The translations under genes were made by a program, and so were the position numbers. Of a DNA stretch of 64,000 bases, positions 4,357 to 64,000 are shown piece after piece. Source of the DNA: Centroscyllium fabricii (Eukaryota); NCBI GenBank assembly GCA_051313645.2, contig JBNRSN020000008.1, positions 10,230,001-10,294,000 on the forward strand. The letters are read 5' to 3'. Numbering within the stretch: the stretch's first letter is position 1; the number at the start of each line of letters is the position of its first letter. The notes beneath the pieces are model-generated. The model searched no databases. It worked only from the letters and a program-made list of their open reading frames with translations, and had not been told where the DNA came from.

Positions 4357-7300
4357 ATGGAGAGCAGCGCAGTTAAACCTGAGAAGCTGGACATCAGTCC
4401 CCAGGACCCTGCCGCTGCCGCCACGTACGAACACTGGTTCGGCCTCCTGGAGGCCTACATGGACGCCGCCAAGGCTACAACGGACAGGAACAAGCTGCAT
4501 GTCCTACGATCGAAGATCTCCAGCAGGGTATTCACCCTCATCAGGAACGCCTCATCCTACGTAGCGGCTGTACAAATTCTGAAAAAATGTTACGAGCGCC
4601 CGGTCCATTTGGTCTACGCCCGACATGTGCTTGCGACCAGATCTCAGCTACCGGGTGAGTCCAATGAGGAGTTCGAGCAAGCGCTCCTGGCCCTGGTACG
4701 GGTCTGTGGCTGCAAAGGCACAACAGCTGAAGAGGAGGCAGAACTCCTCGTTCGGGACGCTTACGTTACAGGACTGAGGTGTGTGGAAGCCCGCCAGCGG
4801 CTGCTTGAAAAAGACACCTTGTCCCTCGAAGACGCGATTGCTATATCTAACTCAGTGGAAGGAGCGCGCAACAAACTGCAAGCTTACAGCGGCACAAACC
4901 CGCAGGCCTACGACATGTGGGCCGCGCCACAACGGGCCCAGGCCTGGGCAGCACCACAATGGGTCGAGACCCCCACGATGGCTGCGACAGCCACAAAAGA
5001 CAAACGCTGCTACTTCTGCAGCCAGGGACTGCACCCGAGAGCGAGATGCCCAGCAAGGACCGCGACCTGTGAGAGGTGCGCCAAGAAGCGACATTACGCA
5101 AAGGCTTGCAGATCAGCACCAACAGCGCCCAACTCCAGGTACAACAGCGCAGCCTGTGAAAGCGACAGACCTGAGGTAAGCTGCAATAGCAGCGCGATCC
5201 AGCGACGGTCCGGGGGTAGGAGGAAAGCGCCCCCAGCTCCCACCCCGATGCGGCAAAGGCCGGCCAAGCGCGACCCCCCAACGCCAGCAGCAGACCCAAT
5301 GCGGCCGGCTGCGTGCGAATCACGGGCACCGCCAACCCGACCACCGCGGCTCGCTGCGTGCGAACCACGGGCACCGCCAACCCGACCACCGCGGCCCGCT
5401 GCGTGCGAACCACGGGCGCCGCCAGCGCGCTCACAGCAGTCAGCCACGTGCGAACCACGGGCGCCGCCATCTCGCCCCCAGCGGCCCACCATGTGCGACC
5501 CCTCGGCGGCACCATTTTGTCCCCAGGGCCCCACCATGTGCGAGCCAGGGGCGCCGCCATTTTGTCTACAGGGCCCCACCATGTGCGAGCCAGGGGCGCC
5601 GCCATTTTGTATGCAGCCCCAACCAGCAGGGGGCCCACACACACAAAAGCACACGTCTGCTTCAGCTATACCCAGAGTGGACCAGGACAGGCCACACACC
5701 CTGTCTAACTCAATAATGCCCATCAAAATAAACGGCCATACTACTAATTGCCTATTTGACACTGGAAGCACGGAGAGCTTTGTGCACCCCGATACAGTGC
5801 AGCGCTGCGGACTGCAGGTCCTGCCCACAAACTACCAAGTCTCCCTTGCTTCAAAGTCCCACACCGCGGACGTCACCGGCTACTGCTCCGTCACGCTCAC
5901 AGTCAAGGGGTGCGTGTACCGTAATTTTAAATTGTACACCCTCCAGCAGTTGTGTGCCCCAGCCTTACTAGGTCTGGATTTCCAGTGCCACCTCAAGAGC
6001 GTGACAATGGAGTTCGGCGGGACCTTGCCCCCCCTCACCGTCAGTAGCCGGGACAGTCCCTTCCCAAAGCGGAGCCCGGCCTGCGGCCTCTCCACCCTGA
6101 AAATCGACCCCCCCTCACTGTTCGCCAACCTCGACCCCAAGTGCAAACCTATTGCTACCAAGAGTCGGCGGTACAGTGTGGGGGATCGCACGTTTATCAG
6201 GTCGGAGGTCGGGCGGATGCTGAAGGAGGGGATAATTGAAGCCAGCACCAGCCCCTGGCGCGCCCAGGTTTTAGTGGTAAAGTCTGGCGAGAAACAACGG
6301 CTGGTGATCGACTGCAGCCAGACCATCAACCGCTACACCGGGCTCGACGCCTACCCCCTTCCCCGCATCTCGGAAATGGTCAATCAGATCACCCAGTACA
6401 AGGTGTTCTCCACGATCGACCTTAAGTCAGCGTATCACCAACTCCCGATCCGGAAAGCCGACCGCCCCTACACCGCCTTCGAGCCGAACGGTCGGCTCTA
6501 CCACTTCCTCCGGGTCCCCTTCGGCGTGACAAACGGAGTGTCAGTGTTCCAGCGGGAGACGGACCGCATGGTTGACCAGAACGGGTTGCAGGCCACCTTC
6601 CCCTACCTGGACAACGTGACCATCTGCGGCCACGACCAGCAGGACCACGATGCCAATCTGGCCAAATTTCTCGACACGGCGGATAAGCTGGACCTCACGT
6701 ATAACAAAGACAAATGTGTCTTTAATACAGACCGGCTCGCCATCCTCGGATACGTGGTGGAGAACGGGGTCCTCGGCCCTGACCCACAGCGTATGCGACC
6801 CCTTCAAGAACTGCCCCTACCTCACAACCCTAAAGCCTTGAGGAGATGCCTAGGATTTTTCTCCTACTACGCACAATGGGTCCCACAGTTCGCGGACAAG
6901 GCTAGACCACTCCTCAAGGCTGCCGTTTTCCCCCTTTCGGTAGAAGCCCAAACAGCATTCGCCCGGATAAAGGAAGACATCATCAAGGCGACCATGCTCG
7001 CTGTTGATGAATCCATTCCCTTCCAGGTGGAGAGCGACGCTTCAGACTTCGCCCTTGCTGCCACCCTGAATCAGGCAGGCAGGCCCGTAGCGTTTTTCTC
7101 CCGCACCCTACAGGGACCCGAAACTCGCCACTCAGCAGTGGAAAAGGAGGCCCAGGCCATCGTGGAGGCCGTGCGCTACTGGCGTCATTACCTGGCCGGT
7201 AAGCGTTTTACCCTTCTCACCGACCAACGGTCGGTGGCGTTTATGTTTAATAATAAACAGAAGGGTAAGATCAAGAATGATAAGATCCTGCGGTATCGGA

Positions 7301-7584
7301 TCGAGCTCTCGACTTACGAGTATGACATTCTTTACCGACCAGGCAAACTCAATGAACCCCCGGACGCACTGTCCAGGGGAACGTGCGCCAGTGCCCAGCT
7401 GAAGGACCTCCACGACCGCCTTTGCCACCCGGGTGTCACCAGACTCGCCCACTTCGTTAGATCCCGTAGCCTCCATCACGGAGATCAAGGCTATGACCCG
7501 AGAGTGCCCTGTTTGCGCCGAGTGCAAACCCCAATTTTTCCGGCCAGACACGGTGCACCTCATCAAGGCCACCCGCCCCTTTGA
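4357..7584 (+). CDS. Gypsy Gag-Pol polyprotein (gag with Zn knuckles, protease, RT, RNase H); frameshift at the start of integrase
   Basis: CYFC..H..C and CERC..H..C knuckles; LFDTGS protease; YLDN at the RT YxDD position; ESDASD RNase H; frame shifts near 7470. Confidence 0.9.
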   Translation: MESSAVKPEKLDISPQDPAAAATYEHWFGLLEAYMDAAKATTDRNKLHVLRSKISSRVFTLIRNASSYVAAVQILKKCYERPVHLVYARHVLATRSQLPGESNEEFEQALLALVRVCGCKGTTAEEEAELLVRDAYVTGLRCVEARQRLLEKDTLSLEDAIAISNSVEGARNKLQAYSGTNPQAYDMWAAPQRAQAWAAPQWVETPTMAATATKDKRCYFCSQGLHPRARCPARTATCERCAKKRHYAKACRSAPTAPNSRYNSAACESDRPEVSCNSSAIQRRSGGRRKAPPAPTPMRQRPAKRDPPTPAADPMRPAACESRAPPTRPPRLAACEPRAPPTRPPRPAACEPRAPPARSQQSATCEPRAPPSRPQRPTMCDPSAAPFCPQGPTMCEPGAPPFCLQGPTMCEPGAPPFCMQPQPAGGPHTQKHTSASAIPRVDQDRPHTLSNSIMPIKINGHTTNCLFDTGSTESFVHPDTVQRCGLQVLPTNYQVSLASKSHTADVTGYCSVTLTVKGCVYRNFKLYTLQQLCAPALLGLDFQCHLKSVTMEFGGTLPPLTVSSRDSPFPKRSPACGLSTLKIDPPSLFANLDPKCKPIATKSRRYSVGDRTFIRSEVGRMLKEGIIEASTSPWRAQVLVVKSGEKQRLVIDCSQTINRYTGLDAYPLPRISEMVNQITQYKVFSTIDLKSAYHQLPIRKADRPYTAFEPNGRLYHFLRVPFGVTNGVSVFQRETDRMVDQNGLQATFPYLDNVTICGHDQQDHDANLAKFLDTADKLDLTYNKDKCVFNTDRLAILGYVVENGVLGPDPQRMRPLQELPLPHNPKALRRCLGFFSYYAQWVPQFADKARPLLKAAVFPLSVEAQTAFARIKEDIIKATMLAVDESIPFQVESDASDFALAATLNQAGRPVAFFSRTLQGPETRHSAVEKEAQAIVEAVRYWRHYLAGKRFTLLTDQRSVAFMFNNKQKGKIKNDKILRYRIELSTYEYDILYRPGKLNEPPDALSRGTCASAQLKDLHDRLCHPGVTRLAHFVRSRSLHHGDQGYDPRVPCLRRVQTPIFPARHGAPHQGHPPL

Positions 7585-8587: not shown

Positions 8588-8867
8588 TGTGGTAACCTAT
8601 AATGTTATGTATACCACTGCATTCTTGTTGCCAATAATTGGCTGTGTATATGTGATACACAGCCCTGTAATACTGTCGGGAGCCAGGTCAGCCACACCTC
8701 TAACTCCTCCCCCAGGTGAGGCCTTTATAGGTGGAGACTGACTGAGGCTCCCTCATTCCTGCTTAGATGTTCGTTCGGAGGGTAGCTCCTAAGTAAGTGA
8801 TTAAAAGCCTATAGTTACGGTAACTACTCGTTGAGTCTTTTAATCTGAAGATATTGACGATACGTCA
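8588..8867 (+). repeat. 3' LTR of the Gypsy element
   Basis: tgtggtaacc...gatacgtca, homologous to but divergent from the 5' LTR. Confidence 0.85.
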
Positions 8868-9150
8868 AGCTCCCTCTACACTGTCCCATTAAACACTCCC
8901 AGGGCAGGTACTGCACGGGTTAGATACAGAGTAAAGCTCCCTCTACACTGTCCCATTAAACACTCCCAGGGCAGGTACAGCACGGGTTAGATACAGAGTA
9001 AAGCTCCCTCTACACTGTCCCATCAAACACTCACAGGGCAGGTACTGCACGGGTTAGATACAGAGTAAAGCTCCCTCTACACTGTCCCATCAAACACTCC
9101 CAGGGCAGGTACAGTACTTGTTAGGTCTAGAGCAAAGCTCCCTCTACTCC
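8868..9150. repeat. Remainder of the 67-bp satellite (about 4 units, degenerate at the edge)
   Basis: Same monomer resumes immediately after the LTR. Confidence 0.95.
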
Positions 9151-10218: not shown

Positions 10219-10327
10219 CGTCAGTCAGGGGCTGCAATTCAATGCGGTTCTCAGAGGTGAAAGAGCAGTGTGCTGACCATTTTTAATAATTCTGCTGATT
10301 TTCGCGGCGATGAATTGTGTGTTTCAG

Positions 10328-10513
10328 GGCTGGAGGATCTGCAGATGATTCAGTTCACCGATTCCCTGGTGACGGTTTCCGATACAGGGAAGGAGCTCGG
10401 TGAATTTACCATCACGGTTCAGTCCATCCTGTATGGAGGGCAGCCGAGTCTCCGCATTCACGCCAACAGCCACGGCTCCATTGACAATATTCCATGTGGA
10501 ACATCCATCTCAG
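10328..10513 (+). CDS. CATIP: CATIP coding exon (first one found in the window)
   Basis: AG/GT bounded, phase 1-1; GLEDLQMIQFTDSLVTVSDTGKELGEFTI..HANSHG..CGTSIS matches recalled CATIP/C2orf62 (SETLAMVSDTG..GELTI..HASSRG..CGNS). Confidence 0.9.
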
Positions 10514-18673: not shown

Positions 18674-19316
18674 GGCAATAAATGCCAGCCTTGCATCTCC
18701 AGAATGAATTTAAAAACGAAAGCTTTTTACCCTGTGCAGCCACAGATGCCCAGACCAAATTAGAATACCCATCCAGCCGGAGATCAATAAGCTCAGCAGT
18801 GCCCAGTGATCGATCGTGGGACTGCAAGGGTCAGCAGCATTCTGAGCAATGCATTAAGCCATAATCAGCAACTATGATTGTGACAGGTTATTGCAGGATG
18901 CACATCCCTTTATTACTGTCCCCAAGACACTGAGGGGATATACTTAGCGGGAAAGCCTGAACAGGCTGGGGCTCTTTTCTCCAGAAAAGAGAGGGCCGAG
19001 GGGTGACCTGATCGAGGTTTTTATTATTAATAATAATAATGGCCCAGAAATTCCAGTCAGCGCATATCGGGTTTAAGCTCTGCGAGCGCACCAGAGCTTA
19101 AACCCGCAGGAAGCAGCTGGTAGCGCACGCTTCGGGATTTCCTGTGCCGCCCAGCAGGGGGGGTCGCTGCTTCCTGCGAAGTCCAGCGCAGGAAGCAGCG
19201 AACTACGGGATTATCCAGTCATTCCTTTTGGGCTGAATGACCTGTTTCTGTGCTGTAGCCTCGTTGTAACGCAATGTCCTGTAGTAAACACGTTGAAACT
19301 CCTTGTATTTGATCAG

Positions 19317-19484
19317 AGTGTGAAGTCCGAGACTTTGACCTTCAGTCTGACGGATATGAGTGGGTTCGTATCGGAGGCCAGTAACCTGATCCTTTCCCGA
19401 ATTCTCTCCCAACGAAACGAGGTCCCTGACAACATGGTCTTCCTCTCTTTTGACACCGAATTGAAGCTTTCCACTTCCACGTAT
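19317..19484 (+). CDS. CATIP: CATIP coding exon
   Basis: gatcag/gtaagt boundaries; SVKSETLTF..GFVSEASNLILSRIL..VPDNMVFLSFDTELKLSTSTY (recalled CATIP GFISEAANLVLLRV..VPSNARFLTLDTE). Confidence 0.92.
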
Positions 19485-19907
19485 GTAAGTACCGAGACTC
19501 GGGTCCTTCGATCAGCAGAGAGGGTGGAGGGGAGCGTGGGGTACTTGCGATTTTTAAAATGTCACAACCAATCTGGCTTTGAGATTCAGTACTTAAACGC
19601 TGTGGTCCCGCCCTGTTGGGGGATTGGGGGGGGGGGGCGGGGGGTGGCGGAAGGAGTTGGGGGTTCACAGCAAAATAATGAAACATAAGTTTATTCTGAT
19701 TTAACAATCATCACCTATAAAGTATCATCTCTGGCTGCGATTACTTGGTTCTAAGCAGTGTTATGGGTAAAGAGTGGGGGAGTGGGACCAATTCGATATC
19801 TCTTTCACGGGCACGATGGGCCCAATGGCCTCCTTCTGTGCTGTACGATTTCAAGCCAGTTTACATGGTACCTCCCTCTATGTATCTATGATCGTACAAT
19901 GTGCCAG

Positions 19908-34405: not shown

Positions 34406-34692
34406 TATTACTCTGTAAATAAGTATTACGTAGAATCTACGACACAGAAACAGGCCATTAGGCCCAACGGGTTCAAGAGGCGAGCGTGCTACCCACTGAA
34501 GCACGGCTAACACTTGAAAACTTTAGCAGACCCCGTACGATCGACTGAAGACAACAGAGTGGGCCCGACCGGCTCGCTGACCTTGTCTGGTTCCTGCCTT
34601 CGTCACCACACGCACACGCGCATTTTCGAAAACTTGCAGCATCACTTAACGGCGCCCGGAAGGAGTTGTTGACAGAGTCCCTTGTCTTTCAG

Positions 34693-34902
34693 GAGGAGCT
34701 GAAAGCAGACTACAGCAGCTACATGCGACACCACCCGGAACTGAGGTTCTTACTGGCCGACTTCCTGCAGTTCCTGCTCCTCCGGAAACCGCAGGACGTC
34801 CTCACCTTTGCTGCAGAGTATTTCGCCTCATTCTCCACCTTCAACACGGAGCAAACGCCCTTCCTGACCTCCAACAAGCCAAGTCCCTTCAAAGAACCTT
34901 AA
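34693..34902 (+). CDS. CATIP: CATIP last coding exon (RIIa-like dimerisation/docking region)
   Basis: ctttcag acceptor; EELKADYSSYMRHHPELRFLLADFLQFLLLRKPQDVLTFAAEYF..PSPFKEP*; ATTAAA just after the stop. Confidence 0.93.
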   Translation, partial: EELKADYSSYMRHHPELRFLLADFLQFLLLRKPQDVLTFAAEYFASFSTFNTEQTPFLTSNKPSPFKEP

Positions 34903-37275: not shown

Positions 37276-39644
37276 TTAATTATGTACACAAGTGGTAAAT
37301 ACATGTACGTTGATGACAGCCGGCTCTACCTCACCGCCACTTCTCTTGACACCTCCAGTCTTCAAATTGCTAGACTGCTTGCCCGACATCCAGTTCTGAT
37401 GCAGTAGAAATTTGCTCCAATTAAATATTGGGAAGATGAAAGCTATTGTTTTCAGTCCCTGCCACAAACTCCATCCCTAACATCTGTCTGAGGCTGATCC
37501 ACACTGTTCGCAACCTTGGTATCATTTGACCCCAAAATGAGCTTCTGACCACATGTGCGCAGCACAAGACTGCCCATTTCCACCTCCGTATCATCGCCCG
37601 TCTCTGCCCTCGCCTCAGCTTATCTGCTGCTGAAACCCTCATCCATGCCTTGGTTACCTCTAGATTTAACTTTCATTGATTCAACTTTCATTGAACTCCT
37701 AGCTGGCTTCCCACCTTCTACATCAACTGGAGCTCCTCCAAAGCTCTGCAGCCCTATGTCCTAACTCGCACCAAGTCCCATTCACCCATCACCCGTGCTT
37801 GCTAAATTTAAGCTTATTGCAGTACTGAGTGAGTGTTCCCTGGTATTTATCTCAGTCAAAGATGATCCTGTATGATGGCAAAATACTGCAGATGCTAACA
37901 CTGCAGATGCTGGAAATCCGATAACAGAAAATGCTGGCGAAACTCAGCAAGCCAGGCAGCATCGGAGGAGAGAGAAAGGGTCCGAACCCAAAACGTCGAC
38001 TATTTCTCTCCACCGATGCTGCCTGGCCTGCTGAGTTTCTCCAGCATTTTCTGTTATGTCAAAGATTATCACATGCTGTTTGTGGCGGTTTCCCTGCCCA
38101 GATTGGCCGCCACATTTCCTACATTTAACAGATGAAATTTAACGCAGAAAAGTGCAGCGTTTTGGCAGGCAGAACAAAAAGATGCAATAAAGGGTACAAT
38201 CCTAAAGGGGATGACGAGACCTGGGGGTATATGCGCACAAATCATAAAGGTAGCAGGGCCGGTTGAGGAAACAGTTAAAAAGCCACAGGATCCTGGGCTT
38301 CAGTGGCAGAGAGTACAAAAGCAAGGAGGGTATGAACTTTAATAAAATACTGGTTTGGCCTCAACTGGAATATTGGGTCCAAATCTGGGCACCACATTTC
38401 AAGAAGGATGTAAAAGCCTCAAGAAGGTGCAGAAAAATTTTACAAGAATTGTTCCAGGGATGAGTGACTCCATGGATAGACGAGAAGCTGTGGTTGTTCT
38501 TACAGTAGAGAAAGAGATTTGATAGGTGTTCAAAATCATAAAGGGATCTAGACAGTATAGATAGAAACTGTTCCTATTGGTGGAAGGGTCAAGAATCAGG
38601 ACACAAGGTGATTGACAGAAGAACCAAAGGCAACATGGTGAAAAGCTCATCTTTACACAATGAGTGGTTTGGTTAGGTTCTGGAATGCACTGCCTGAAAG
38701 GGTGTGGTGGGGGGGGTGGGCTGGCAGGAGACTCAATCATGGCTTTCAAAAGGGAATTGGACAAGAACCTGAAGGAAAAAATTTGCAGGTCGACAGAAAG
38801 GGCAGTGGGGGGAACATCACAAACAGATGATCTGGTCATCATCACATTGCTGTTTGTGGGAGCTTGCTGTGCACAAATTGGCTGCTGCATTTGCTACATT
38901 ACAACAGTGACTACAGTTCGACCAAAGCACTTGACAGCAAGAGGTGCTACAAAAATGAAAGTCTGGAGACAATTTGTTGGGAGTGTTTTCTTCTTGCACA
39001 AGTTGTCTCAAGTTAAAACAGCAACATTTTGTGGGGAAAAAAAAATCAAAAATAATTGAAAGGTGAGCAGACCCGACAACGTGCATTCATGTGGCTCCTT
39101 CAACAAGAGGCATTTCACAGGCACATTAACAAAATTCAACACTGGGCTATAAAGAATTAGGACAGGAGACTAACAGAAACAGATAGGAGCAGGAGTCGGC
39201 CATTCAGCCCATCGAGCCTGCTGGCCCTTCGAGCCTGCTCCTCCATTCAATGAGATCATGGCTGATCATCCAAATTCAGTACCTGGTCCCTACCCTCCCC
39301 ATATCTCCCGACACCCCCAACTCGAAGAACTATATCTCACCCACATACTCATGGGCAATTTTTACTCATGGGCAATTTAGTATCTCCAATTCACCTAACC
39401 TGCATGTCTTTGGGTGGTGGGAGGAAACCAGAGTACCCGGAGGAAACCCACACGAACACGGGGAGAACATGCAAACTCCACACAGAGAGGTCCCGGGCCC
39501 AAGCAGGATTCAAACCCAGGAGTGTTCAAAAGCTTGGTCAAAGAGATGGGTTAAAGAGAAAGAGGCGCAGAGGGATGAAATTCCACAGCTTAGCCAGCTG
39601 AAGACAGCCGCTAATGGTGGAGCCATTAAAATTAGGGATGTGCT

Positions 39645-39927
39645 TGTGGTAAACCACTCTGTATATATCTGTATATTTCTGTAACCTACTGTAACCACCC
39701 TTAAACCATGTTGTATTATAGTTCTGTGGGTGAGATCACCTGGACATGCCTATGCTGGCCCCGCCTGTGACTCCTCCCTCCCAGGACCAGGTACATAAGC
39801 GGCTGTCTCCCTCTCCCCGGCCATTCCTGGGGACGGTCGACTAGCTGGTGCATGTCCACCTTTAGTTAATAAAAGCCTATAGTTTTCACCTCTTAACTCG
39901 TCTCCGAGGTCGTTAATTCAGTAACCA
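39645..39927 (+). mobile_element. Gypsy-family solo LTR
   Basis: tgtggtaaacc start, actcctccc and taataaaagcc motifs shared with the 4042/8588 LTRs. Confidence 0.7.
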
Positions 39928-40019
39928 TGCACAAGGCCAGAATTGGAGGAGTGCAGGGATCTCAACCAACTCGTTAAGTCACCACAATACAATAGTTCAA
40001 AGTGTATCAAAATTCATTT

Positions 40020-40025
40020 TTTATT
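40020..40025 (-). terminator. Putative poly(A) signal of the H2B-variant gene
   Basis: AATAAA on minus about 70 nt after the stop; no histone stem-loop seen. Confidence 0.6.
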
Positions 40026-40093
40026 GAAAAAATAAAATACTTTCTGCAGTGTTGCATCAACATGGTAGAATTCACATTGGCAGGGAGGGGAGA

Positions 40094-40282
40094 TTATTTA
40101 GCAGCAGCTTTGGCACAGCCTTTAGGGAGTACGCGACGCAGAGCGCTCCGAACTTCTTGGCTGGTGATGGTGGTGCGTCTCTTGTAGAGGGACAATCTGG
40201 CGGCCTCAGCAGCTATCTGGTCAAATAGACAGGAGGAGTTCATCTGCACAAACCCCATGGAGCTCCCATGCTCTGGATGCAC
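40094..40282 (-). CDS. Histone H2B variant, coding exon 2
   Basis: gtttacag acceptor; VHPEHGSSMGFVQMNSSCLFDQIAAEAARLSLYKRRTTITSQEVRSALRRVLPKGCAKAAAK* aligns to H2B L1-alpha2-alpha3-alphaC. Confidence 0.85.
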   Translation of the reverse strand: MHPEHGSSMGFVQMNSSCLFDQIAAEAARLSLYKRRTTITSQEVRSALRRVLPKGCAKAAAK

Positions 40283-40336
40283 CTGTAAACCAGATCATAT
40301 GGAGTCTGTTAAAGAATGTAATATGTGAACAAATCA

Positions 40337-42845
40337 CGAAGATTAGTGAAAATAATAAAGTAACAATACTAGGGGACTTTAATTTCCCCAATATCAACTG
40401 GGAGAATCAAAGTGTGAGGGGCACGGATGGTTCAGCATTCTTACAATGCAGCCAAGATAATTTTTTGAAACAATATGTGGGGTCACCTACAAGGGGGGGG
40501 GCGGTACTAGACCTAATACTTGGGAACGAGGACGGGCAGATAGAGGAGGTAACAGTGGGGGAGCACTTCGGGGATAGCGACCACAATTCAGTTAGTTTCA
40601 AAATTGTAATGGAGAAAGATAAAAATGGACCAGGGGTAAAAATACTAAACTGGGGGAAGGCGGATTTCAATAAAATTAGGAACGATGTAACCGCAGTAGA
40701 TTGGGGCCATCTCCTCAGAGGAAGATCTGCATCAGAGCAGTGGGAGGCCTTCAGAGGGGAAGTCGGGAAGATACAGGAGGAACATGTTCCTGCAAAAATT
40801 AAGGGTGGGGGAGACAAACAAAGGGAACCTTGGATGTCTAGAGATATATGTAAATTAATGAAGAAAAAAAGGGGGGCTTTTAATGAATATAAACGGCTAA
40901 AAACTGAGGAGGCACTAGGGGAGTATAAGAAATATAGGGGGGATTTAAAGAAGGAGATAAGAAAAGCCAAGAGAGGTCATGAGATTACAATGGCCGGTAA
41001 AATCAAGGATAACCCTAAGGCATTTTATAGTTATATAAAAAACAAAAGGATCACGAGGGAAAGGGTGGGGCCCATTAAAGACGATAGCGGAAAGCTGTGC
41101 GTCGAGCCTGAGGAGGTGGGGGAGGTACTAAATGAATTCTTCTCTTCAGTATTCACAAGAGAGAGGGACGATACCGACATCGAAATCGGACAGAATGTAG
41201 GGGGGGTAATTGAGGATATTACCATTACAAGGGAAGAAGTTCTAGAAATCTTGGGAGGCTTAAAGGTGGACAAATCACCAGGGCCGGACGCAATGTTCCC
41301 CAGGCTGCTGTTCGAGGCCAGGGAGGAGCTTGCGGGCCCCCTGTCCCAAATCTTCAGGACCTCTCTCACGTCAGGGGATGTGCCTGAGGACTGGAGAACG
41401 GCTAATGTAGTACCCTTGTTTAAAAAGGGTAGTAGGGACAAACCAGGCAACTACAGGCCAATCAGTCTTACATCTGTAGTGGGGAAAGTAATGGAAAAAA
41501 TTCTGAGGGAAAAAATCAGTTCGCATTTGGACAACCAAGGTCTAATAAGAGACAGTCAGCATGGCTTCGTCAAAGGTAAGTCGTGCCTGACCAATCTGTT
41601 GGAATTCTTTGAGGAAGTAACAAAGAGGGTGGATGAAGGGAGTACTGTGGACGTAGTGTATATGGACTTTAGCAAAGCTTTTGATAAAGTCCCACATAGG
41701 AGACTAATAACAAAGGTTAGAGCGCACGGGATACAGGGTAACTTGGCACAGTGGATCGAAAATTGGCTGGGGGATAGGAGACAAAGGGTAATGGTAGAGG
41801 GCTGCTTCTGTGACTGGAAACCAGTAACCAGTGGCGTCCCCCAAGGATCGGTTTTGGGACCCTTACTGTTTCTAGTATACATCAACGATTTGGATATGGG
41901 AGTAGGGGGTACGATCAGCAAATTCGCTGATGATACGAAAATCGGAAGGGTGGTAAACAACGATGAGGATAGCAAGGGGCTTCAGGAGGATATAGATATA
42001 ATGGTTAATTGGGCAGAAAAATGGCAAATGGAGTTCAACCCAGAGAAATGCGAGGTCATTCAATTCGGTAGACCAAATGGGGTAAGGGAATATACCATGA
42101 ACAACAAAACGTTAAATAGGACCGAGGAGCAGAGGGACCTGGGGGTACAGGTGCACAGCTCCCTGAAGGTTGCTGGACACGTTAACAAGGTGGTTAAGAA
42201 GGCATACGGAATTCTCGCCTTTATTAACCAGGGCATAGTATACAAAAGTAGGGAGGTAATGTTAAACCTGTATAACACACTGGTGAGACCTCAGCTGGAG
42301 TACTGTGTGCAGTTCTGGTCACCGCACTACAGGAAGGATGTGGCTGCCCTGGAGAGGGTGCAGAGAAGGTTTACCAGGATGATACCTGGTCTGGCGGACC
42401 TATGCTACGAGGAAAGGCTGGGGTTGTTTGCCTTGGAGAAAAGAAGGTGGAGGGGTGACATGATTGAGGTGTACAAGATCATGAGGGGACACGATAGGGT
42501 AGACAAAGGGGCATTGTTTCCCCTGGTGGGAGAGTCAAGCACTAGGGGACATAGATTCAAGATCAGGGGGGGGAGGTTTAGGGGGGAGGTAAGGAGAAAT
42601 TTCTTTACCCAGAGGGTGGTGGAAGACTGGAACTCCCTGCCTGTGAGGGTGGTGGAGGCAGGAACCATCACAACATTTAAAAAATACTTGGACCAGCACA
42701 TGAAGGACCATAACATACAGGGTTATGGGCCAGGTGCGGGCAACTGGGGTTAGAACAGTGAGGAGTTTTTCTGGGCCGGTGCGGACTGGATGGGCCGAAT
42801 GGCCCTTATCCGCACTGTAAAATTTCTATGATTCTATGATTCTAT
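40337..42845 (+). mobile_element. Young 5'-truncated CR1 LINE with open ORF2 (endonuclease end + RT) in the H2B-variant intron
   Basis: 779-aa ORF 40414-42753 with NYRPISL, QHGF, DFSKAFD, GVPQGSVLGP, FADD; tail (attctatg)n. Confidence 0.95.
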
Positions 42846-42937
42846 GTGTGTAGAACAAAAAGGACAGACAGGATGAGTTGGGAGTCAATGTGCTTGCTTT
42901 ACTAGGCCAGAGCAAACTGAGCATGCTCATACAAAAC

Positions 42938-43143
42938 TTGATGTGGAGGTGCCGGTGTTGGACTGGGGTGGACAAATGCAAGAAGTCACAACACCAGGTT
43001 ATAGTCCAACAGCTTGATTTTAAATCACAAGCTTTCGGAGCGCTGCTCCTTCCTCAGGTGACGAAGGAGCAGCGCTCCAAAAGCTTGTGATTTAAAATAA
43101 AACTGTTGGACTATAATCTGGTGTTGTGTGACTTCTTGCATTC
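42938..43143. mobile_element. Penelope-derived palindromic remnant
   Basis: Same family; hairpin centred at about 43058. Confidence 0.7.
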
Positions 43144-44097
43144 ATACTAAACTGATATTACACTCCGATGAAGGGTCCTAGACCTGAAATGTTAACTCTT
43201 GCCATGGATGCTGCCTGGCCTGCCGAGTGCCAACATTTTCTGTTATTTTATGATATTACACTGTTTACTCTTCCCTTGCCGCCCCCCCCCCCCACCCCAC
43301 CCCCCCACCCCAACCATACATATTCCCCCTCAAATTACAACAAAACTTTGCAATTCCAGCATTATTTGTACCACAAAAGCCACTTCCCCCCCCCCTCCTT
43401 TTAAATGAACTACTACAAACCCAGTTTAATAACAGGTTTGCAGAGCCTTGAAGGTTTTGGTGTTGAACCATTTTTCAGGCTGTTTTGGTTCCAAACAAGG
43501 CAATACTGTTGCCATCTCAGACTTGTTTGAGCCTGGTACTTCAGTTTCTGAAGTCTGAATGAGTCACTCATGTGTTCATAATTAAGTGGTTGAAGATCAT
43601 GTCTTGGTTCATGTCTAGCAGAGATCATTTGATCTGCACAAACACGTTGGATGCGTCACCAATTTCAACCAAATTGTTCCACCAACCTCTACTATGGTTC
43701 TTGCATCCCATCCTAGTCATCAAAATGCAGTGTATGTGGGTAGAACAAATGAAGGACAGACATGTGCTTGCTTTACTAGGCTAGAGCAAATGGAGCATGC
43801 TCATTAAACCATTAGAAAGAGGGAGTCAGATAGCAAGTGGCCAGGGTAACAGGTGGAGATCCTCCAGTGGGTTAGGTCCACACTGGTGAAATGCAATGGC
43901 TTTCTTGGTCCACCAGTTCCAAAACTGGGCTCTGCACAAGTTGATTTAATTTGCTGTCATTTTAATTCTCTGCTCCTACACCAGTTCTAATGAAGTTCAA
44001 TAAGCAGCAGCTCATCTTGGATCAGGCGCTTTACAGCCTTCCAGAAGCAGAGTTCAACAATTTCAGATCAGAACCACAGATCAGAACCACATGGTCA

Positions 44098-44510
44098 GCA
44101 GTGGCTCAGTGGGCAGCACTCACCCAAGTCAGCAGGTTGTGGGCTCAAATCCCACTCGAGACTTGCGCACAAAAAAAAAAAAAATCCAGGCCGACACCCC
44201 AAGTGAAGTACTGAAGGAGTGTTGCACAGAGGTGCGGTCCTTTGGTTGAGACATTAAACAGAGGCCACACCTGCTCAGATATGCCTCTATTCAGAGCAGG
44301 GGGTGTTCTCCTTGGTGTCCTGGGCCAATATTTATCCCTCAACCAACATCACTAAAACAAATTCTAGTCATCTTGTTTGTGGGAGCTTGCTGTGTGCAAA
44401 TTGGCTGCTGCTTTGTTTCCTACATTACAACAGTGACTACACTTCAAAAAAAGTACTTTCATTGGCTGTAAGGAGATGTCTGTTGGTCATGAAAGGTGCT
44501 GTAGAAAGGA
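44098..44510 (+). mobile_element. Deu-domain SINE (degenerate)
   Basis: gtggctcagtgggcagcactc head and family tail. Confidence 0.6.
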
Positions 44511-45130
44511 GTCTCACTACTCCATGTAATACTGTCCACTAAACTTGACAACCAAATGTACTAACAAGCTTGGAGGGCAAGAAACTGCTTGGCTAAAACA
44601 TTTGTAAAATAAAAGTGATTTGCTTTTTTTTTTAGGGAAAAACAGACAAGACCAAATTCTGAGAACCACGAGTCAAAAACCTACAGATGTGAAAACAACC
44701 CCAACCCTTGAATGTCTGACCTTGGTTAATCTCTGACCCCCGAATGTCTGACCTTGGTTAATGAAGCATCAAAAACAGTTAGAAAGCGAGAGAGAGGAAA
44801 ACATTAATCACAGTTTGGGACACAAATGCTTTGGGCAAGTTGCCAAGTTTTGGAGTACAAGGGATGTTGTAGACAACACTTGTGGCTGCAGTAGTTGGCA
44901 ACCTGATCAGTTGCCAGTCATACATCTGGTCATTGCTGACTTGACCTCACTGGTTAGTACATATGTGGTGGCTTATGATCACTTGAGCTTAAAGTAAATG
45001 ATTTGAGATTAGTGTGTGTTTGCAATAAGTAAATGAAGTGAGTACAATTTGTATTACTTGTAATCTCTTGCTGATTTTAAGTAAAGAATGGTTTATCCTG
45101 AAATTTGTCTGGAGTTGTCTGTTCCACAAA

Positions 45131-45367
45131 TGTGGTAATCATGTATAACCACTGTACATAGTCGCCGGTCTACCTGTACAATATTGTAGGCCAGGTCAGC
45201 CACACCCCTAACTCCTCCCCTCAGGTCAGAGTATATAGGCGAGTGCTGACCTGCCCCCGCTCATTCTTCACCTTGACCTCACCAGGAGACCAGCTCCATT
45301 CTTAGTTAATAAAAGCCTGTAGTTTAGTTAACTACTCGTCTTTGAGAGATTAATTGACGATACGTCA
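45131..45367 (+). mobile_element. Gypsy-family solo LTR
   Basis: tgtggtaatc...attgacgatacgtca, similar to 8588-8867. Confidence 0.75.
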
Positions 45368-46136
45368 ACAGGTCTGAATTCTAAACTGTCAGACAATCAG
45401 AATGTCAGTTTTTGGTAGACAGCGGGTGCTGGTAATTATTCTGCTGTTGCCATTTACAGCTCCTCTAGATCCATCTTGGTTTCTTCACTTGTCCCATCAC
45501 TGCCCCCCTTTCACCACCGTCCCTAGTCAATTCAATTCAAATAGCTTTATTGGCATGAATGGTATCAACCTTTGTTGCCAAAGCATTGTAACATACATAA
45601 AAATTACATTAGTAGAGCATTGTAACATACATATAAATAATACATTAGTAGACTTAATAACAGTACTAACGGTCATTGAATCTCCTTGCCTGCCACCCTT
45701 TCCCCAGTTCTGATTAAAAAGGTAAATCAACCCAGTTCTGATCAAAAGGTAAATCAACCCAACAGATGCTGCCTGCCCTGCTGAGTATTTCCAGCATTTT
45801 CTATTTTTATTTAATCTGATCTAATTATTGGGCATTTAAAATTCATTCATGGTATGTGGGCATCACAGGCATTTTTCCTATTTGCCCAAAGAAGGTGGTG
45901 GTGAGCCGCCTTCCTGAACCGCTGCAGTCCGTGTGGGGAAGGTGCTCCCACAGTGCTGTTAGGGAGGGAGTTCCAGGATTTCGACCCAGTTCCAGGACTT
46001 CGACCCAGCGATATTTCAAAACCTTGTCCTTCCAGGCGGTCAAGGTTGCAGGTGGTGGAACTCAAGTACAAGGAGTACGGAGGCAAAAATAGCATGGGTG
46101 CATTCAAGGGAAAGCTAGATAAATACACAAACCAAA

Positions 46137-47895
46137 GGCCCAGAAATTCAGGTCCCAACACGCAAGTACACGCTGGGTACTCATAGGCCCAAAAAGTGCT
46201 GGTTTAGAGAGAGCACGGGAAACCAGAACTTCTGTTCCCCTGAAAGAAGGGGAAAAACAGAGGTGGAACGTGTGCGCAGGAGAGACAGCGCGTGCGCATG
46301 GAAGGTTTTTTCCATGTGGGCAAGTCTCTTGGAGATACACATGTAAAAAGCAGGCAGGTGGAAGGCCTGCTTTTAACAAGGCAAGTGGTGAATTAATTAA
46401 AAAATCCCCCCCCCCCCCCTCAGGTTTATTATTTTTAAATACTTTAAAGAAAGGCAAGTTTATTTTTGCCCCATTAGAAAATGTAATTTTTCCAAAAATT
46501 AAAATTGTTTAAAATAGTAATTTCATGTAATTTATGATGTGGAGGTGCCGGTGTTGGACTGGGGTAGACAAATGCAAGAAGTCACAACACCAGGTTATAG
46601 TCCAACAGTTTTATTTTAAATCACAAGCTTTCGGAGTGCTGCTCCTTCCTCAGGTGAAGTGTCGAGATTTATTTAAACATACATACATATATACACATTT
46701 ATTGAGAGAGAACAATGTGGTCTCTCCAACTGTTCACATCACACCTCAGCTGAGGGACATCAAAGGTGTTCCAACATATCAGTCAGCCTGAGATCAAAGG
46801 GTGCAGTCACAAAGGGTCAAATGTCAGTCTGCTGTCTGTGAAAATCCCAGATTTAAAAAAAAAAAAAAAAGGATTTTCCTTACTGAAAATCGCAGAACAA
46901 GCCAAAGACGATTCAAGTCTGGATGACTAAGTCAGGCAGGGTCACATGTAGCGCGACATAAATCCAATATCAGTGGAGGCCGTGCTCATGGGTGCGGAAC
47001 TTGGCTATCAGCCTCTGCTCGACGATTTTGCATTGTCGTGTGTCTCGAAGGCCACCTTAGAGAATGCTTACCCGAAGATCGGAGGCTGAATGTCCTTGAC
47101 TGCTGAAGTGTTCCGACTGGGAGGGAACACTCCTGCCTGGTGATTGTTGCACAGTGTCCGTTCATCCGTTGTCGTAGTGTCTGCATGGTCTCGCCGATGT
47201 ACCATGCCCCGGGGCATCCTTTCCTGGTCATCCAGAGTTGAATCATCTTTGGCTTGTTCTGTGATTTTCAGTAAGGAAAATCTTTTTTTTTTTTTTTTTT
47301 TTTATATAAAGTCATTCTGTGGGATTTTCACAGACAACAGACTAACATTTGACCCTTTGTGACTGCACCCTTTGATCTCAGGCTGACTGATATGTTGGAA
47401 CACCTTTGATGTCCCTCAGCTGAGGTGTGATGTGAAACAGTTGGAGACCACATTGTTCTCTCTATATAGATATTGTTCTCTCGCTCTCTATATGCTATGT
47501 TTAAATGAATCTCGTCACTTCGCCTGAGGAAGGAGCAGCGCTCCAAAAGCTTGACTCCAAATAAAACTGTTGGACTATAACTGTAATTTAATTTTTAAAA
47601 TGTGATTTTTAAAAATTTGAAGTTTTAGTTATGTTTTGGGGCTTATAATAATTATAGTTTTGACAGCTCTTCCTGTCAATTTTATGAATGGGCAATTATC
47701 TGCCTGCTACCATTGACTCCAGGGCCCACTTCGAACCAACTTCACCGCTGGGATACACAAGCACTGCACGCCAGCGGTTAGAGGCCCAGGATCAGAATCC
47801 CACGCGGGCCCCACAGCACAATGGCTGGCGCACTAGGTAAGTGTGGGTCGGAGGCTTGCACCGGCGGGAAGCCCCCGACCTGAATTTCTGGGCCA
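46137..47895. mobile_element. MITE (Harbinger-like) carrying a nested Penelope fragment
   Basis: TIRs ggcccagaaattcaggtc / gacctgaatttctgggcc. Confidence 0.65.
46534..47583 (-). mobile_element. Penelope-like element fragment with inverted pLTRs and a GIY-YIG endonuclease remnant
   Basis: Inverted arms of about 350 bp (46585-46930 and 47226-47583) flanking GCPGAWYIGETMQTLRQRMNGH. Confidence 0.8.
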
Positions 47896-48579
47896 TTATT
47901 CCCACAGCAAAGAGGGAGGAATACAAGTCAACATGACAAAGATGCAAGTTCAAGCAAGTTGGGGCCAAGGTAACAAACTAAAAAAGGACTATCGTAAACA
48001 TTTAAACTGTTAAAAACTAGAGGCCAAACTGACAAGTTAGTGGCTAGATGTAGTATTTGTTGCCATGTTATACAACACAAACAGGCCATTTGGCCCAAGC
48101 TGGCATTTATGCTCTACATCACCAAATCTGTCAATTCCTTGCTCAGGTTTATCTAACTTCTCCTTAAATGCATCTGTGCTATTCGCTTCAACCACTCCGT
48201 GGTAGGAAGTCTCAAAAATCATGGCAATTGGCAGAAGATCCAAAGGAGACGCAAGGAAACACTTTAGGGGTAAGCCATTTAGGACAGACGAGAATTTCTT
48301 CACCCAGTGTGGTGAACCGGTGGAATTCTACCACAGAAGGCCGTGGAGGCCAATTCATTAAATATATTCAAGAAGGAGTTGGATATATTTCTTAAGGCTA
48401 AAGGGATCAAGGGATATGGGGAGAAGGCACGGACAGGGTGTGGTAAACCACCATATTGTATAGTGTCTCCCTCTCATGTCCCCTCCTTGTAATTACTGTG
48501 TCTGTATGTATAGTTGTGACTCCTTGTCTTGTCTGGGAGGACTCAGCTTCCTCTCCAGGCTCCGCCTACAACTTGGGTA

Positions 48580-49153
48580 CAGGTTGTGCACCATTAATCC
48601 GCCACGGGCGGGACCAGGCCAGTGCCGGGAAACAGAAAAAAAACAGGAGAACGAGGTTGGACACTGGCCACGCGCACCTGCACCAGCACCCTTCAAAATG
48701 GCCACGCGCACCATTCAAAATGGCCACGCGCACCATTCAAAATGGCCACGCGCATGCGCACAACATTGGGATTGGCTGGCACGCACATGCGCAGATCGGG
48801 CCCGGGTCCGCCTTCCCTCCATCGCCTTTCGGGTTGCTGCTACCGCCGAGCCGGACTCAAGCTGACAGCTGTTGCCTAGTGACTGTCCACCTCAGTCACG
48901 GGGCTCAGCTGTCGAGAAAATAACCGGCGGCCGTATTGAATTATCTGCGCATGCGCTAACCGTCCGGCGACGCATGCGCAGATCATTCAAAACACCAGGC
49001 AGCTGTTTTGAATGATCTGCGCATGCGCAGATCATTCGCTGAAGCCACGATGGCGGTGGCCATCTTGCGCATGCGCAGTGCAGTCGGGGCAATTTGTGCC
49101 AGCAGACTGAAGCTGCCGGCTATTCGAGACACGGATTTTCAGTGCACAACCTG
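48580..49153. mobile_element. Tc1/mariner-pogo-like MITE inserted in a Gypsy-type LTR fragment (starting about 48439)
   Basis: TA-caggttgtgcac ... gtgcacaacctg-TA; same family as 20877-21552. Confidence 0.75.
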
Positions 49154-49877
49154 TATAAATGTGCTTGCACAAACATTGGTATTAACATGGGGGCTGTGGG
49201 AGGAGGAGCGGGGGTTCCTAGCTGCAATGTATGGAGTGCAAGATATACAATTCTGTTTAGAGCAGCTTTCTACCAACAAGAACTATTCGAGGTACAACAC
49301 AAATTAAGAGCACCATCAAGTCAAACCCACAAATCTCATTCTTCACCCCCCTCCCCTTAAATCCTACAGAGACAAAGAAAACTTCCCATAAGAAATGTGT
49401 AGGGGTGAGCTATACAGCCCTAGCACATCAAACCAATTGCACTCACCAATTCTCTTTAATCAGATGGAGGGGTTAGTTTACAAGGGGAGCCAGATTCCCC
49501 AGTGAAAGACAATTCATGGGCCAGTTGAATTGACAATTCTCAAGACTGTTCAACTACTCTGCACAATTGGAGATTGCAAAAACTTCACGGTTTAGGAACC
49601 AGGGGGGATGTCCCTCAGAATGGAGAAAGGCAAAACTATAAAAATAATTCTGTTTATTGTTGAATAAAGCACTACACCATTTTTGTAGAAGGAGGTTAAC
49701 CTTTTTCAAAACTCCATCTCCAACTCTTGTAGGATAGAAGGAGCATTCAATTGTTGGACCAGAAGAGGGTTAACTTTACATCTAGACCTTACCCACTAGT
49801 AGGTGCTACTATCCCACCCCAATTGAGTGAGTGAACAATCCCTGTGTCAAAGCACAACCCCAGACAGAGTCCTGTAC

Positions 49878-60748: not shown

Positions 60749-62140
60749 TCAAAATTTGATCTTGCTGAGTCGGTCCACTTCCTTAAAAAAAGGCTTGTCC
60801 TGATCTTCGTTCAGGCTTACTTCTTCCTGTATCATCATACTTCCTCCAGGGATAACTGCTGCACCTAGTCTGTTGCAACAGCATTTAATTACTGCGACTA
60901 ACAAACTAATAGACACAATTATAGCTACTACGATCACTAGTCCATGTAATAATGCTTGTCCCATAGATCCTAACCATCCTCCCATTATCCATTCAAACCA
61001 GTCTTGGCTTACTGGGTTTTTATATATGCTTACTGCCTTTCTTATGTGATCCACGATGTTAGTTATATTTTCTGAACTATCAGGGATATACGTGCAACAT
61101 TCGCTCCCTATCAATGCACAGGTTCCTCCTTCATTTGCCAGCAGATAATCTATTGCCATTCTATTCTGTAGTGTCATTACTCTTATTGCTACTATCTCAG
61201 CGCTCATTTCTGAAAATCCTTCCTCAGTCTCATTTGCTACTATCTCTATCAGGTCTGCTAGCTTGCTTACTTCCACCATCAACTTTCCTATTCCATATGA
61301 GGGTAAAAATATTCCAAAGACTCCTTCATACGTTGCTATTGCTCTTTTAGTCCTGCTAAATTCATGATGTTCTCCTATATCGTCTAGGATGTGAATATAA
61401 GGCACTACATAACCTAAATAGCAGGATCCTATCCAATTATGTGGCAACCATGAATAGGCTCTGTTTCCACAATTAAAATAGGTACAGTTGTAGGTTGTTA
61501 AATTCTCTGCTCCTCCTATAATCCATAGGCGGAAAGCATCGCCAGCCCATAGGGATTTACTGGTCTTATTATATACGTTGGTCCAATTTAATCCAAACAT
61601 TCCCTTATTGATCAGGCCAGAAACGGGTGGTTGCCACGTGACTGTTTGATTACAATAACTTTCCCCCACACTTCTTTCTATTTTCTTGCCTATTATAACC
61701 TCCTTTTTAAAACATAATGAACCCTTTGGTCTGCCAATTCCTGAGGTGTTAGTTAGGGAAAGTGATGGGGGCATTCTGCTATGATTATAATTAGGCTGGT
61801 ACCATCCCTGGAAGGTGGTTAGGTTATAACCTGCTGATTTCCACTCAATTAAGTCCAGGGTCTTGTCTAGGTCGCCTGAGTTATTTCGCCTAATGATCCA
61901 TTCTGCTGTTTCAGAAATATTAAAGGGAATTGATCTTAAAGGGATTCCTCCTGTAGTATAAATAGGTATATGGGCGCAGACCCAACAACTAGATTTACTA
62001 TTGGCCTTAGCATGCTCGTAAGACATGTACAGGAAGGTGTTAACATGCAGTTCTCGTTTCTTTCGGAGATGGTTACTATCTCTCTGACCGTATATGTGCA
62101 TCATTTCACGAAGTACACAAAGAAGAAACAGTAGCCTCAT
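60749..62140 (-). CDS. env: Endogenous retrovirus Env (gamma-type), intact 463 aa
   Basis: Signal-like N-terminus, CWVC (CxxC), RTKR furin site, ISD LQNRMAIDYLLANEGG, CX6CC, hydrophobic TM anchor. Confidence 0.95.
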   Translation of the reverse strand: MRLLFLLCVLREMMHIYGQRDSNHLRKKRELHVNTFLYMSYEHAKANSKSSCWVCAHIPIYTTGGIPLRSIPFNISETAEWIIRRNNSGDLDKTLDLIEWKSAGYNLTTFQGWYQPNYNHSRMPPSLSLTNTSGIGRPKGSLCFKKEVIIGKKIERSVGESYCNQTVTWQPPVSGLINKGMFGLNWTNVYNKTSKSLWAGDAFRLWIIGGAENLTTYNCTYFNCGNRAYSWLPHNWIGSCYLGYVVPYIHILDDIGEHHEFSRTKRAIATYEGVFGIFLPSYGIGKLMVEVSKLADLIEIVANETEEGFSEMSAEIVAIRVMTLQNRMAIDYLLANEGGTCALIGSECCTYIPDSSENITNIVDHIRKAVSIYKNPVSQDWFEWIMGGWLGSMGQALLHGLVIVVAIIVSISLLVAVIKCCCNRLGAAVIPGGSMMIQEEVSLNEDQDKPFFKEVDRLSKIKF

Positions 62141-64000
62141 TATTTAATAATGTCCTTGTCTGGTAACTTTTTGCAATGGGACGCGTGGATCCAAGTCGGT
62201 CTTTCCTTGACTTTAACAGCCGTATTGGTCGTCAGGAGTACTTGATATGGACCTTCAAAGCGGGGCCGTAGTCCGTTTTTTCTTTTGAAGACCTTTACAT
62301 ATACATTGTCTCCAGGTTCTAAGCTATGACACTTTCCTTCTGCTGGTTCCGTTTGTGCTTCCTTTACCTGTCGGTGAAAGCTGGAAATACATTTGGTTAA
62401 TGCAATGCAATAATTCAACATATTTTCATCCATTTTATGGATGTCCATTTGCTTAATCGTAAGGGGCGCGGAAAATGGCAGTCTTAATGGTCGCCCCATA
62501 ACGATCTCATGTGGTGATAGTCCAGTTATCCTGCTGGTTGCTGCTCGCATTATCATTAATGCTAGGGGTAATAACTCGACCCATTTAAGTCCAGTCTCAT
62601 GACAAAGTTTAGAAAGTTTATTCTTTAATACCCCGTTGTATCTTTCTACCAATCCTGCCGACTGGGGGTGGTAGCTACAGTGAAAATGTTGATTGACCTG
62701 TAAGGCTTTGCATAGTTCTTTTATAATAGTTCCAGTAAAGTGTGATCCGTTATCACATGAAAGTTGTGTAGGTATTCCGAACCTTGGTATGACTTCTTTC
62801 AATAAACACTTCGCAACAGTTACAGCATCATTTTTTTTACACGGAAAAGCTTCTACCCATCTTGAAAACATGTCTACAATTACTAATACATATTTAAATC
62901 CGAGACAGGCAGGCAATTCAATAAAATCCATTTGCAAGTTTACAAAAGGGCCTATTGGATTTGGGTGGGAGGCAGCCTTTACTTTCTCTGTTTTGCCTGG
63001 ATTCATTTCTTGGCAAGTGGTGCACCTTTCACTAATTTGTTTTACAATAGTCGTAATCCCTGGTGCATACCATGTCTGATTAATATAGTCTGCCATCCCC
63101 CCTTTGCCCGCATGCGTGAACATGTGAACGCATCGGGCAATCCATGGAAGCAAACATTTGGGAGCTACCATGCGGCCATCATGATGTATCCATACCCCTT
63201 CGGGTGTTTTTAAACAGCAATCCTTAGCCCAACCTAACACTTCATCTGAATCAGCCTGTGACTGAAAAGCTAAAACATCATTAAAAGAAGGTGGGTCATT
63301 ATCTGATTTCTGCTGACGCAGTGCCAAAACTGATACTTGTGGACCTGACCTTGAAAGTGCAGCTGTTTTTGCTGCTTTGTCTGCCCTGCAATTTCCTACA
63401 GATATGTCATCTTGACTCCCTAAATGAGCTTGACATTTTATAACTGAAATTTTAGTGGGGCACATAAGAGCTTTCAGAAGATTTTCAATTTGTTCCGCAT
63501 TTTTAATGTTGGATCCGGAAGACGTAAGAAAACCCCTTAACTTCCAAATCTGTCCATAATCATGGGCGACTCCGAAGGCATACCTCGAATCGGTGTAAAC
63601 ATTGACAGTCTGGCCCGTTGCTAATATGCACGCTCTGGTAAGTGCAAATAATTCTGCTTGTTGTGCTGAAAACGATTGAGGTAACATATTTGCTTCAACG
63701 ATTTGATAGTTGTTTACAATTGCATATCCAGCCTTAGATGTACCCTTATCATCCCTTAAAGCTGACCCGTCAACGTAATATATCAGGTCGCTGTTAGTAA
63801 TGGGAGTTTCAGATAAATCTGTCCGAGGTTTTGTCATTAATTGGGTGATCGTTTTGCAACAATGTGAGATACCGTCTTCTTTCGTTGGCAACAATGTCGC
63901 TGGATTTAAAACTGAACATCTTTTAATCAGAAGGTTTGGGTTCGACAGTAATTCAACTTCATATTTACTGCTGCGGGCTGACGTCAGATGCTGAGTAGCA
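62140..64000 (-). CDS. pol: Endogenous retrovirus Pol (tether, RNase H, integrase), open to the window edge
   Basis: [23 protein letters not shown] RNase H, HMFTH..CTTC, QMDF/CDNG/VER DDE, GPY motif. Confidence 0.95.

Follow-up and report, generated by a model that had tools for sequence, protein, structure and literature searches.

Results and Discussion

A Two-Exon H2B Variant Gene beside CATIP

The 64-kb window of the Centroscyllium fabricii genome, the whole stretch of DNA analyzed here, contains an H2B variant gene of two exons on the minus strand, which lies beside CATIP and gives a 104-aa product. Judged from its sequence, the whole αC region of this protein is gone or degenerate, and database gene models indicate that a two-exon, αC-less H2B is kept across sharks and rays. 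Its signals make it most likely a polyadenylated, intron-bearing and replication-independent gene. The features are collected in Table 1.

Table 1. Features of the H2B variant gene and its surroundings in the window.
Feature	Position	Strand	Description
CATIP exons	10261–10512 and 19077–19685	plus	Pfam CATIP_N, E 1e-18 and 4e-18
CATIP last exon	34672–34902	plus	Tail-to-tail with H2B variant; weak RIIa match, E 0.009
AATAAA polyadenylation signal	40020–40025	minus	68 nt past stop; short motif that also arises by chance
Exon 2 coding part	40094–40282	minus	L1, shortened α2, L2, α3, short stub, TAA; 62 residues
Stub replacing αC, with stop codon	40094–40126	minus	Canonical 103–112
Conserved core α2C-L2-α3	40151–40228	minus	Exon 2 codons 19–44; keeps E76, R79, L80, R86, T88, E93
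Length-variable L1/α2-N segment	40229–40270	minus	Exon 2 codons 5–18; −3 here
Single intron	40283–49877	minus	Phase 0, ~9.6 kb, between Q47 and V48, GT...AG
Young 5'-truncated LINE	40320–42750	plus	In intron, antisense, ~38 nt from exon 2 acceptor; 861-codon open frame, RVT_1 and Exo_endo_phos_2
Exon 1 coding part	50003–49878	minus	ATG, short basic tail, α1; 42 aa ending ...KQ, then CAG|GT donor; located by motif scan

When the translation of exon 2 was compared with the PDB, H2B was matched over residues 2–60 with a 3-residue gap (E ~1e-9), and the Pfam Histone family was matched at E 1.4e-5, just below the curated cut-off. Exon 1 was matched by residues 1–42 of the Heptranchias model in tblastn (74% identity, E 1e-14). 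Since a single contiguous Heptranchias RefSeq protein maps to both window exons, at 74–75% identity, we infer that exon 1 is spliced to exon 2. The sequence has an AG acceptor at 40283–40284 before exon 2 and a branch-point-like TTAAC ~26 nt before that acceptor. Contigs from three of four sequencing runs extend into the intron, with no splice joints listed, and a public contig (X1) is identical over 39935–40330 (0 differences), possibly because it derives from the same source DNA. No second H2B was found in the window by tblastn. A histone stem-loop was likewise absent from 39600–40300, where an Rfam scan up to E 10 gave four weak matches, none of them to Histone3.

Upstream of the gene, between 50050 and 60800, no cellular Pfam family was found in the 85 ORFs of at least 55 aa, of which three matched Pfam, all by retroelement domains. 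SLC11A1, the gene next after CATIP in human and mouse, gave no sign among the ORFs scanned in the window. Repeated and mobile elements were observed throughout. The intronic LINE, which we take to be of the CR1/L2 type, may be recent or polymorphic, and the intron also holds a long inverted repeat at 46733–47436, whose arms of 117 and 82 nt are 98% and 90% complementary. Just 3' of the H2B variant, a probable solo LTR with TATA-like and AATAAA motifs was recognized by eye at 39646–39929 (plus strand). A 67-bp tandem array of 60.5 copies (96% matches) occupies 1–4041 and 8867–9147; it is broken by an LTR retroelement, whose gag-pol frame of 1075 codons spans 4357–7581. On the minus strand at 60752–63999, endogenous retrovirus pol (RNase H, integrase, MLVIN_C) and env (TLV_coat) frames run past the window end.

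Truncated C-Terminus

On gap-free canonical numbering anchored at T88, the window protein has G at position 105 and A at 109 and ends at residue 112, with E113 and K120 absent, as the initial annotation had read it; the tail past α3 aligns poorly between species, and E105G and H109A are nominal labels only. That annotation had also asked whether the early stop is kept in other elasmobranchs and whether a further splice supplies the C-terminus. The stop recurs in all six elasmobranch proteins retrieved (five species), which end at canonical 104–110. The splice was looked for and not found: a hidden Markov model of the last 25 H2B residues gave no αC exon in a six-frame search of the window, where its top score was 3.2 bits (63.7 bits for a control H2B), and the best donor-like site within exon 2 agrees with the consensus at 5 of 9 positions, with none in phase 0 after codon 50. 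The TAA codon was unchanged in all four sequencing runs compared (4 of 8 listed runs, covering 3 studies).

Shortened L1/α2 Segment and Conserved Core

From V48 up to E76, the window protein has 25 residues versus 28 in canonical H2B. This agrees in size with the 3-residue loss initially annotated (22 versus 25), whereas a fixed deletion did not stand, since the length varies among species: the deficit is −2 to −7 in five other species and −4 in two sequenced organisms (C and D), and HMMER puts the gap in differing positions. Canonical α2 starts near residue 56. The Heptranchias protein was modelled twice with AlphaFold (from 7 and 12 rows), at low confidence (pTM 0.47 and 0.38), and both models showed α1, a loop at 43–58, α2 only at 59–74 (canonical 68–83), α3 and no αC, so that a loop runs across canonical ~52–67. 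The five deletion lengths across species, a proline at canonical position 68 in the Heptranchias protein and these models together suggest that the N-terminal part of α2, probably its first ~three turns, is now a loop and not a helix. A Foldseek search with the first model placed H2B chains on top, none at E 0.001 or better and with TM 0.3–0.4; a model this poor gives no usable comparison.

The part that follows is better preserved. Among the seven elasmobranch rows, 21 columns are invariant in all, including E76, R79, L80, R86, T88 and E93. H2B E76 forms a salt bridge with H4 R92, and D68 is another H4 contact in the part of the source available (PMC8235166). D68 is lost in the variant, and H49 is altered in organisms C and D. 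The L2 of the window (40160–40190, minus strand) is unlike that of other sharks, N84 being apparently missing and a Thr codon repeated; in organisms C and D, one Thr codon is absent and L2 is one residue shorter.

Elasmobranch Relatives and Selection

Six RefSeq proteins were found in three protein searches and a profile search; they come from five species, namely three sharks (Heptranchias perlo, Chiloscyllium plagiosum and Scyliorhinus canicula, the last with two copies) and two batoids (Pristis pectinata and Narcine bancroftii). They are 61–74% identical to the window protein, and all have open frames, which annotated models have by selection. The two Scyliorhinus copies have unrelated C-terminal ends, as do the different species, and the Scyliorhinus sequences suggest a frame change after α3. 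The Scyliorhinus pair (P0164/P0369) and a Microcaecilia pair (P0295/P0366) each consist of two near-identical copies with consecutive accessions. Splice isoforms were considered for such paired records and rejected, as the differences are scattered and look like those of separate copies.

Among the sequencing runs, organism B gave one silent change, possibly an error, at a depth of 2.4. Organisms C and D differ from the window by nine coding substitutions (seven replacement, two silent), with TAA and AATAAA unchanged. Their coding deletions are all in-frame (3 of 3, net 3 nt), and the indels of the flanks are mostly of 1–2 nt. Over exon 2, pN/pS between the window and C/D was 1.1, a small sample that carries no signal of purifying selection, and changes in coding sequence (9/186) and 3' flank (14/159) did not differ significantly (p 0.19). 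Replacements were absent from core codons 19–44 (0/26) versus 7/36 elsewhere (Fisher p 0.035, with boundaries chosen after seeing the data), though the core also has one in-frame codon deletion in C/D.

Comparison with H2B.N, H2B.K and Canonical H2B

Canonical H2B genes are intronless, have stem-loop mRNA and encode a complete αC, while among the H2Bs surveyed only H2B.K and H2B.N carry an intron, at a common site ("same location") in the histone fold, and both are expressed in oocyte and embryo, according to the available part of PMC8857922. In the same text (Raman et al. 2022), mammalian H2B.N (H2BN1) has two exons, a poly(A) signal and, as the initial annotation had stated, no αC; of the mammalian variants in that survey that are broadly retained, it alone is without this helix. 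It was reported as mammal-only, its origin being placed in the mammalian ancestor by means of a chicken outgroup; the wider vertebrate search, as far as that text describes it, was aimed at H2B.K and sampled neither elasmobranchs nor caecilians or salamanders. In the accessible portions of the sources, H2B.N has no demonstrated protein or function, and a non-nucleosomal role is raised as an option for it (PMC8857922).

The shark gene shares with replication-coupled H2B the Pfam Histone domain, at 45% identity for the window protein, and differs from it in having an intron, no stem-loop match and no αC. Its two exons, the intron within the histone fold (Q47|V48), the poly(A) signal, the lack of a stem-loop and the loss of αC are all as in H2B.N. 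When compared by eye with 12 H2B.N rows, the shark proteins share S81 with 11, L/F82 with all 12, R87 with 11, S39 with 8 and a polar residue 66 with 11, and their L98 matches opossum and platypus H2B.N (3 of 12). Unlike the shark proteins, which are 2–7 residues short, H2B.N keeps the canonical L1/α2 length. In 334 background H2B proteins, S81 occurs in 23 and L82 in 9. An RLSLY-type motif alone was tried as an H2B.N marker and rejected, because RL[AST][LF] occurs in 15 of 276 proteins, including insect and unrelated H2Bs. No H2B.N protein was among the listed matches of the protein and profile searches, and the ESM Atlas showed generic H2B clusters only, one of them named H2B.K, with no H2B.N cluster shown; when canonical families were skipped, nothing reached 0.9.

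With H2B.K, the gene shares the intron at the fold position common to H2B.K and H2B.N, and A78 and V94 are found in some H2B.K. A partial bird record of the H2B.K cluster (795-bp contig) starts at Q47/V48, as window exon 2 does, which supports indirectly an exact common intron site. Unlike the shark gene, H2B.K (H2BK1) of bony vertebrates has a near-canonical fold and a full αC and lies beside ABCF2 at 7q36.1.

As far as anatomy shows, then, the gene resembles H2B.N, and the αC loss emphasized in the initial annotation is common to both; its location, which that annotation had missed, differs. Filing the gene as H2B.N was considered and rejected, because the H2B.N locus is the MYO1D region at 17q11.2, whereas the shark gene, within the 64 kb of the window, adjoins CATIP, a 2q35 gene in human. 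The gene models are already in RefSeq as "H2B-like", and among the papers listed by literature searches on H2B variants, subscription journals aside, none was on the shark or amphibian variant; the lineage itself appears undescribed there.

Amphibian Relatives, Phylogeny and Family Age

The initial annotation looked to sharks and rays only, where the early stop indeed recurs, and missed relatives of full length in amphibians. H2B-like proteins of full length from three caecilians and two salamanders were also recovered with the shark profile (XP_033802871, XP_030065470, XP_029460919, XP_069083376 and XP_078539642), and the amphibian set comprises seven proteins (P0183, P0295, P0366, P0299, P0306, P0312 and P0367). 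Their α2 is of canonical length, and E113 is kept in 5 and K120 in 4 of the 5 tallied. By eye, caecilian residues common to mammalian H2B.N rows are S53 (10/12), D60 (8/12), L62 (11/12), L65 (10/12) and a polar residue 66 (11/12), and Rhinatrema also has W57, as do 10 of the 12 rows. The 334 background proteins are almost always canonical at the H2B.N-like positions, but there is some likeness to H2B.W in the L1 pattern of the amphibians, and D60 and L65 occur in H2B.L, so that convergence among fast-evolving variants is a serious alternative. By these residues, the amphibian clade is a candidate H2B.N orthologue with an intact αC.

A tree was built from 30 hand-picked rows of ~370 proteins, leaving out the near-duplicates P0369, P0366 and P0312. 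The elasmobranch set, including the window protein, formed one clade (100/100) on a long stem branch, and the amphibian set formed another (95/88). The two were sisters in the best tree with weak support (79/69; 396 of 500 bootstraps), while H2B.K joined the shark clade in none of the 500 bootstrap trees. The AU test rejected neither the placement of elasmobranchs with H2B.K (p 0.32) nor that with canonical vertebrate H2B (p 0.37). All four features of a signature (MK start, S/T39, A78 and L82) are present in 6 of 7 elasmobranch and in 6 of 7 amphibian proteins, and no background H2B of the 334 has more than two of them; these features were selected post hoc, and the amphibian proteins had themselves been collected with a profile built on the shark sequences.

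In human, H2BN1 is placed at 17q11.2, where it overlaps MYO1D-DT, and H2BK1 at 7q36.1 next to ABCF2 (PMC9526256 and PMC11742582); CATIP is at 2q35 beside SLC11A1 (PMC5485475 and PMC4009858). The Hox paralogon is given as 2q, 7p/q, 12q and 17q in the accessible part of PMC2211742. The arms of CATIP (2q35), H2B.N (17q11.2) and H2B.K (7q36) all fall within it. Presumably, 2q35 and 17q11.2 also share paralogue pairs such as CDK5R2/CDK5R1. It is conceivable, with a chance that we place a little under even, that the shark and ray gene, the caecilian and salamander proteins and mammalian H2B.N constitute one family as old as jawed vertebrates. As amphibians keep αC, it would then have been lost twice, in elasmobranchs and in mammals. 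In such a family, either a single gene would have relocated from CATIP to MYO1D, or the two sites would hold sister copies that arose in the vertebrate genome duplications, H2B.K being the third. The terms "ohnolog" and "genome duplication" are absent from the available text of PMC8857922.

Proposed Function and Alternatives

We lean towards a functional germline or early-embryo H2B that would give loose nucleosomes with an incomplete acidic patch and without K120 ubiquitin, to which we grant slightly better than an even chance on the sequence evidence. The retained α1 and α2C-L2-α3 half of the histone fold would hold E76, which binds H4, and the basic L2, which binds DNA, and the variant would most likely still pair, if weakly, with H2A. 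Its deposition in germ-cell or early-embryo chromatin is proposed from the expression of both other intron-bearing H2Bs in oocyte and embryo, as given in the part of PMC8857922 available. The resulting nucleosomes may be loosely wrapped or unstable, or the products may be sub-nucleosomal particles. In them, the wall that H2B gives to the acidic patch (E105, H109 and E113) would be missing, and ubiquitination at K120 would be impossible. The initial annotation had likewise proposed unstable nucleosomes, or ones that acidic-patch readers would recognize poorly, or else a role outside nucleosomes. On the H2B side, the acidic patch is made up of E105 and E113, arginine anchors bind with the help of H109, and RING1B–BMI1 activity requires E105; these statements and the roles of K120 ubiquitin are found in the accessible text of PMC12448860, which agrees with what the initial annotation had cited as established for E105, E113 and K120.

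Several observations weigh against this germline H2B, namely the pN/pS over exon 2, the loss of D68, the altered H49 in C/D and the low confidence of the models. A predicted complex of H2A with the variant scored 0.25 against a mark of 0.34, and speaks neither for nor against binding, having been computed without alignments from a stand-in metazoan H2A of a metagenome contig and the Heptranchias partner. The αC and part of α2 make up much of the canonical H2A interface, and entry into the nucleosome may fail.

A functional protein outside nucleosomes, comparable with H2B.L/subH2B in the sperm perinuclear theca or acting as a chaperone-bound decoy, with the core serving for folding or DNA binding, is unlikely but deserves serious weight. 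The absence of αC from all seven proteins, the tolerance of −2 to −7 residues in α2-N and the loop at ~52–67 in both models would suit it, as would the option raised for H2B.N in the part of PMC8857922 available, while the invariant residues are the nucleosomal ones (E76, R79, L80, R86, T88 and E93) and α1 is kept. A slowly decaying pseudogene, or fully relaxed selection, appears improbable; the truncation would then go back to a single ancient disabling lesion, passed on to all elasmobranchs. The pN/pS of 1.1 versus C/D, the long stem branch, the unrelated C-terminal ends among species and Scyliorhinus copies and the closeness of the LINE to the acceptor speak for decay, but frames are open in all six database proteins (annotated models), the three C/D deletions are all in-frame, the core is invariant, and the splice sites and AATAAA are intact. 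A full-length mature protein, its αC supplied by a further splice or its stop an assembly error, is highly improbable: a hidden exon could in principle lie outside the window, but the donors of exon 2 are weak, six frames of the window hold no αC, and the stop is common to the runs of three studies and has its counterpart in the early ends of all six RefSeq models.

Significance

Few surfaces of chromatin are as conserved as the αC of H2B, which borders the acidic patch and carries the K120 ubiquitin. A second vertebrate lineage with an αC-less H2B suggests that a protein of this kind has a use and is no mere peculiarity of mammals, and the shark lineage also offers a likely explanation for the common intron of H2B.K and H2B.N. 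With its full-length amphibian relatives, it provides a graded natural series for asking whether H2B.N-type proteins enter nucleosomes. If the shark, amphibian and mammalian proteins are indeed one family, this would be a natural series with and without αC, from which one may approach what a nucleosome is for when its acidic patch is without the H2B half.
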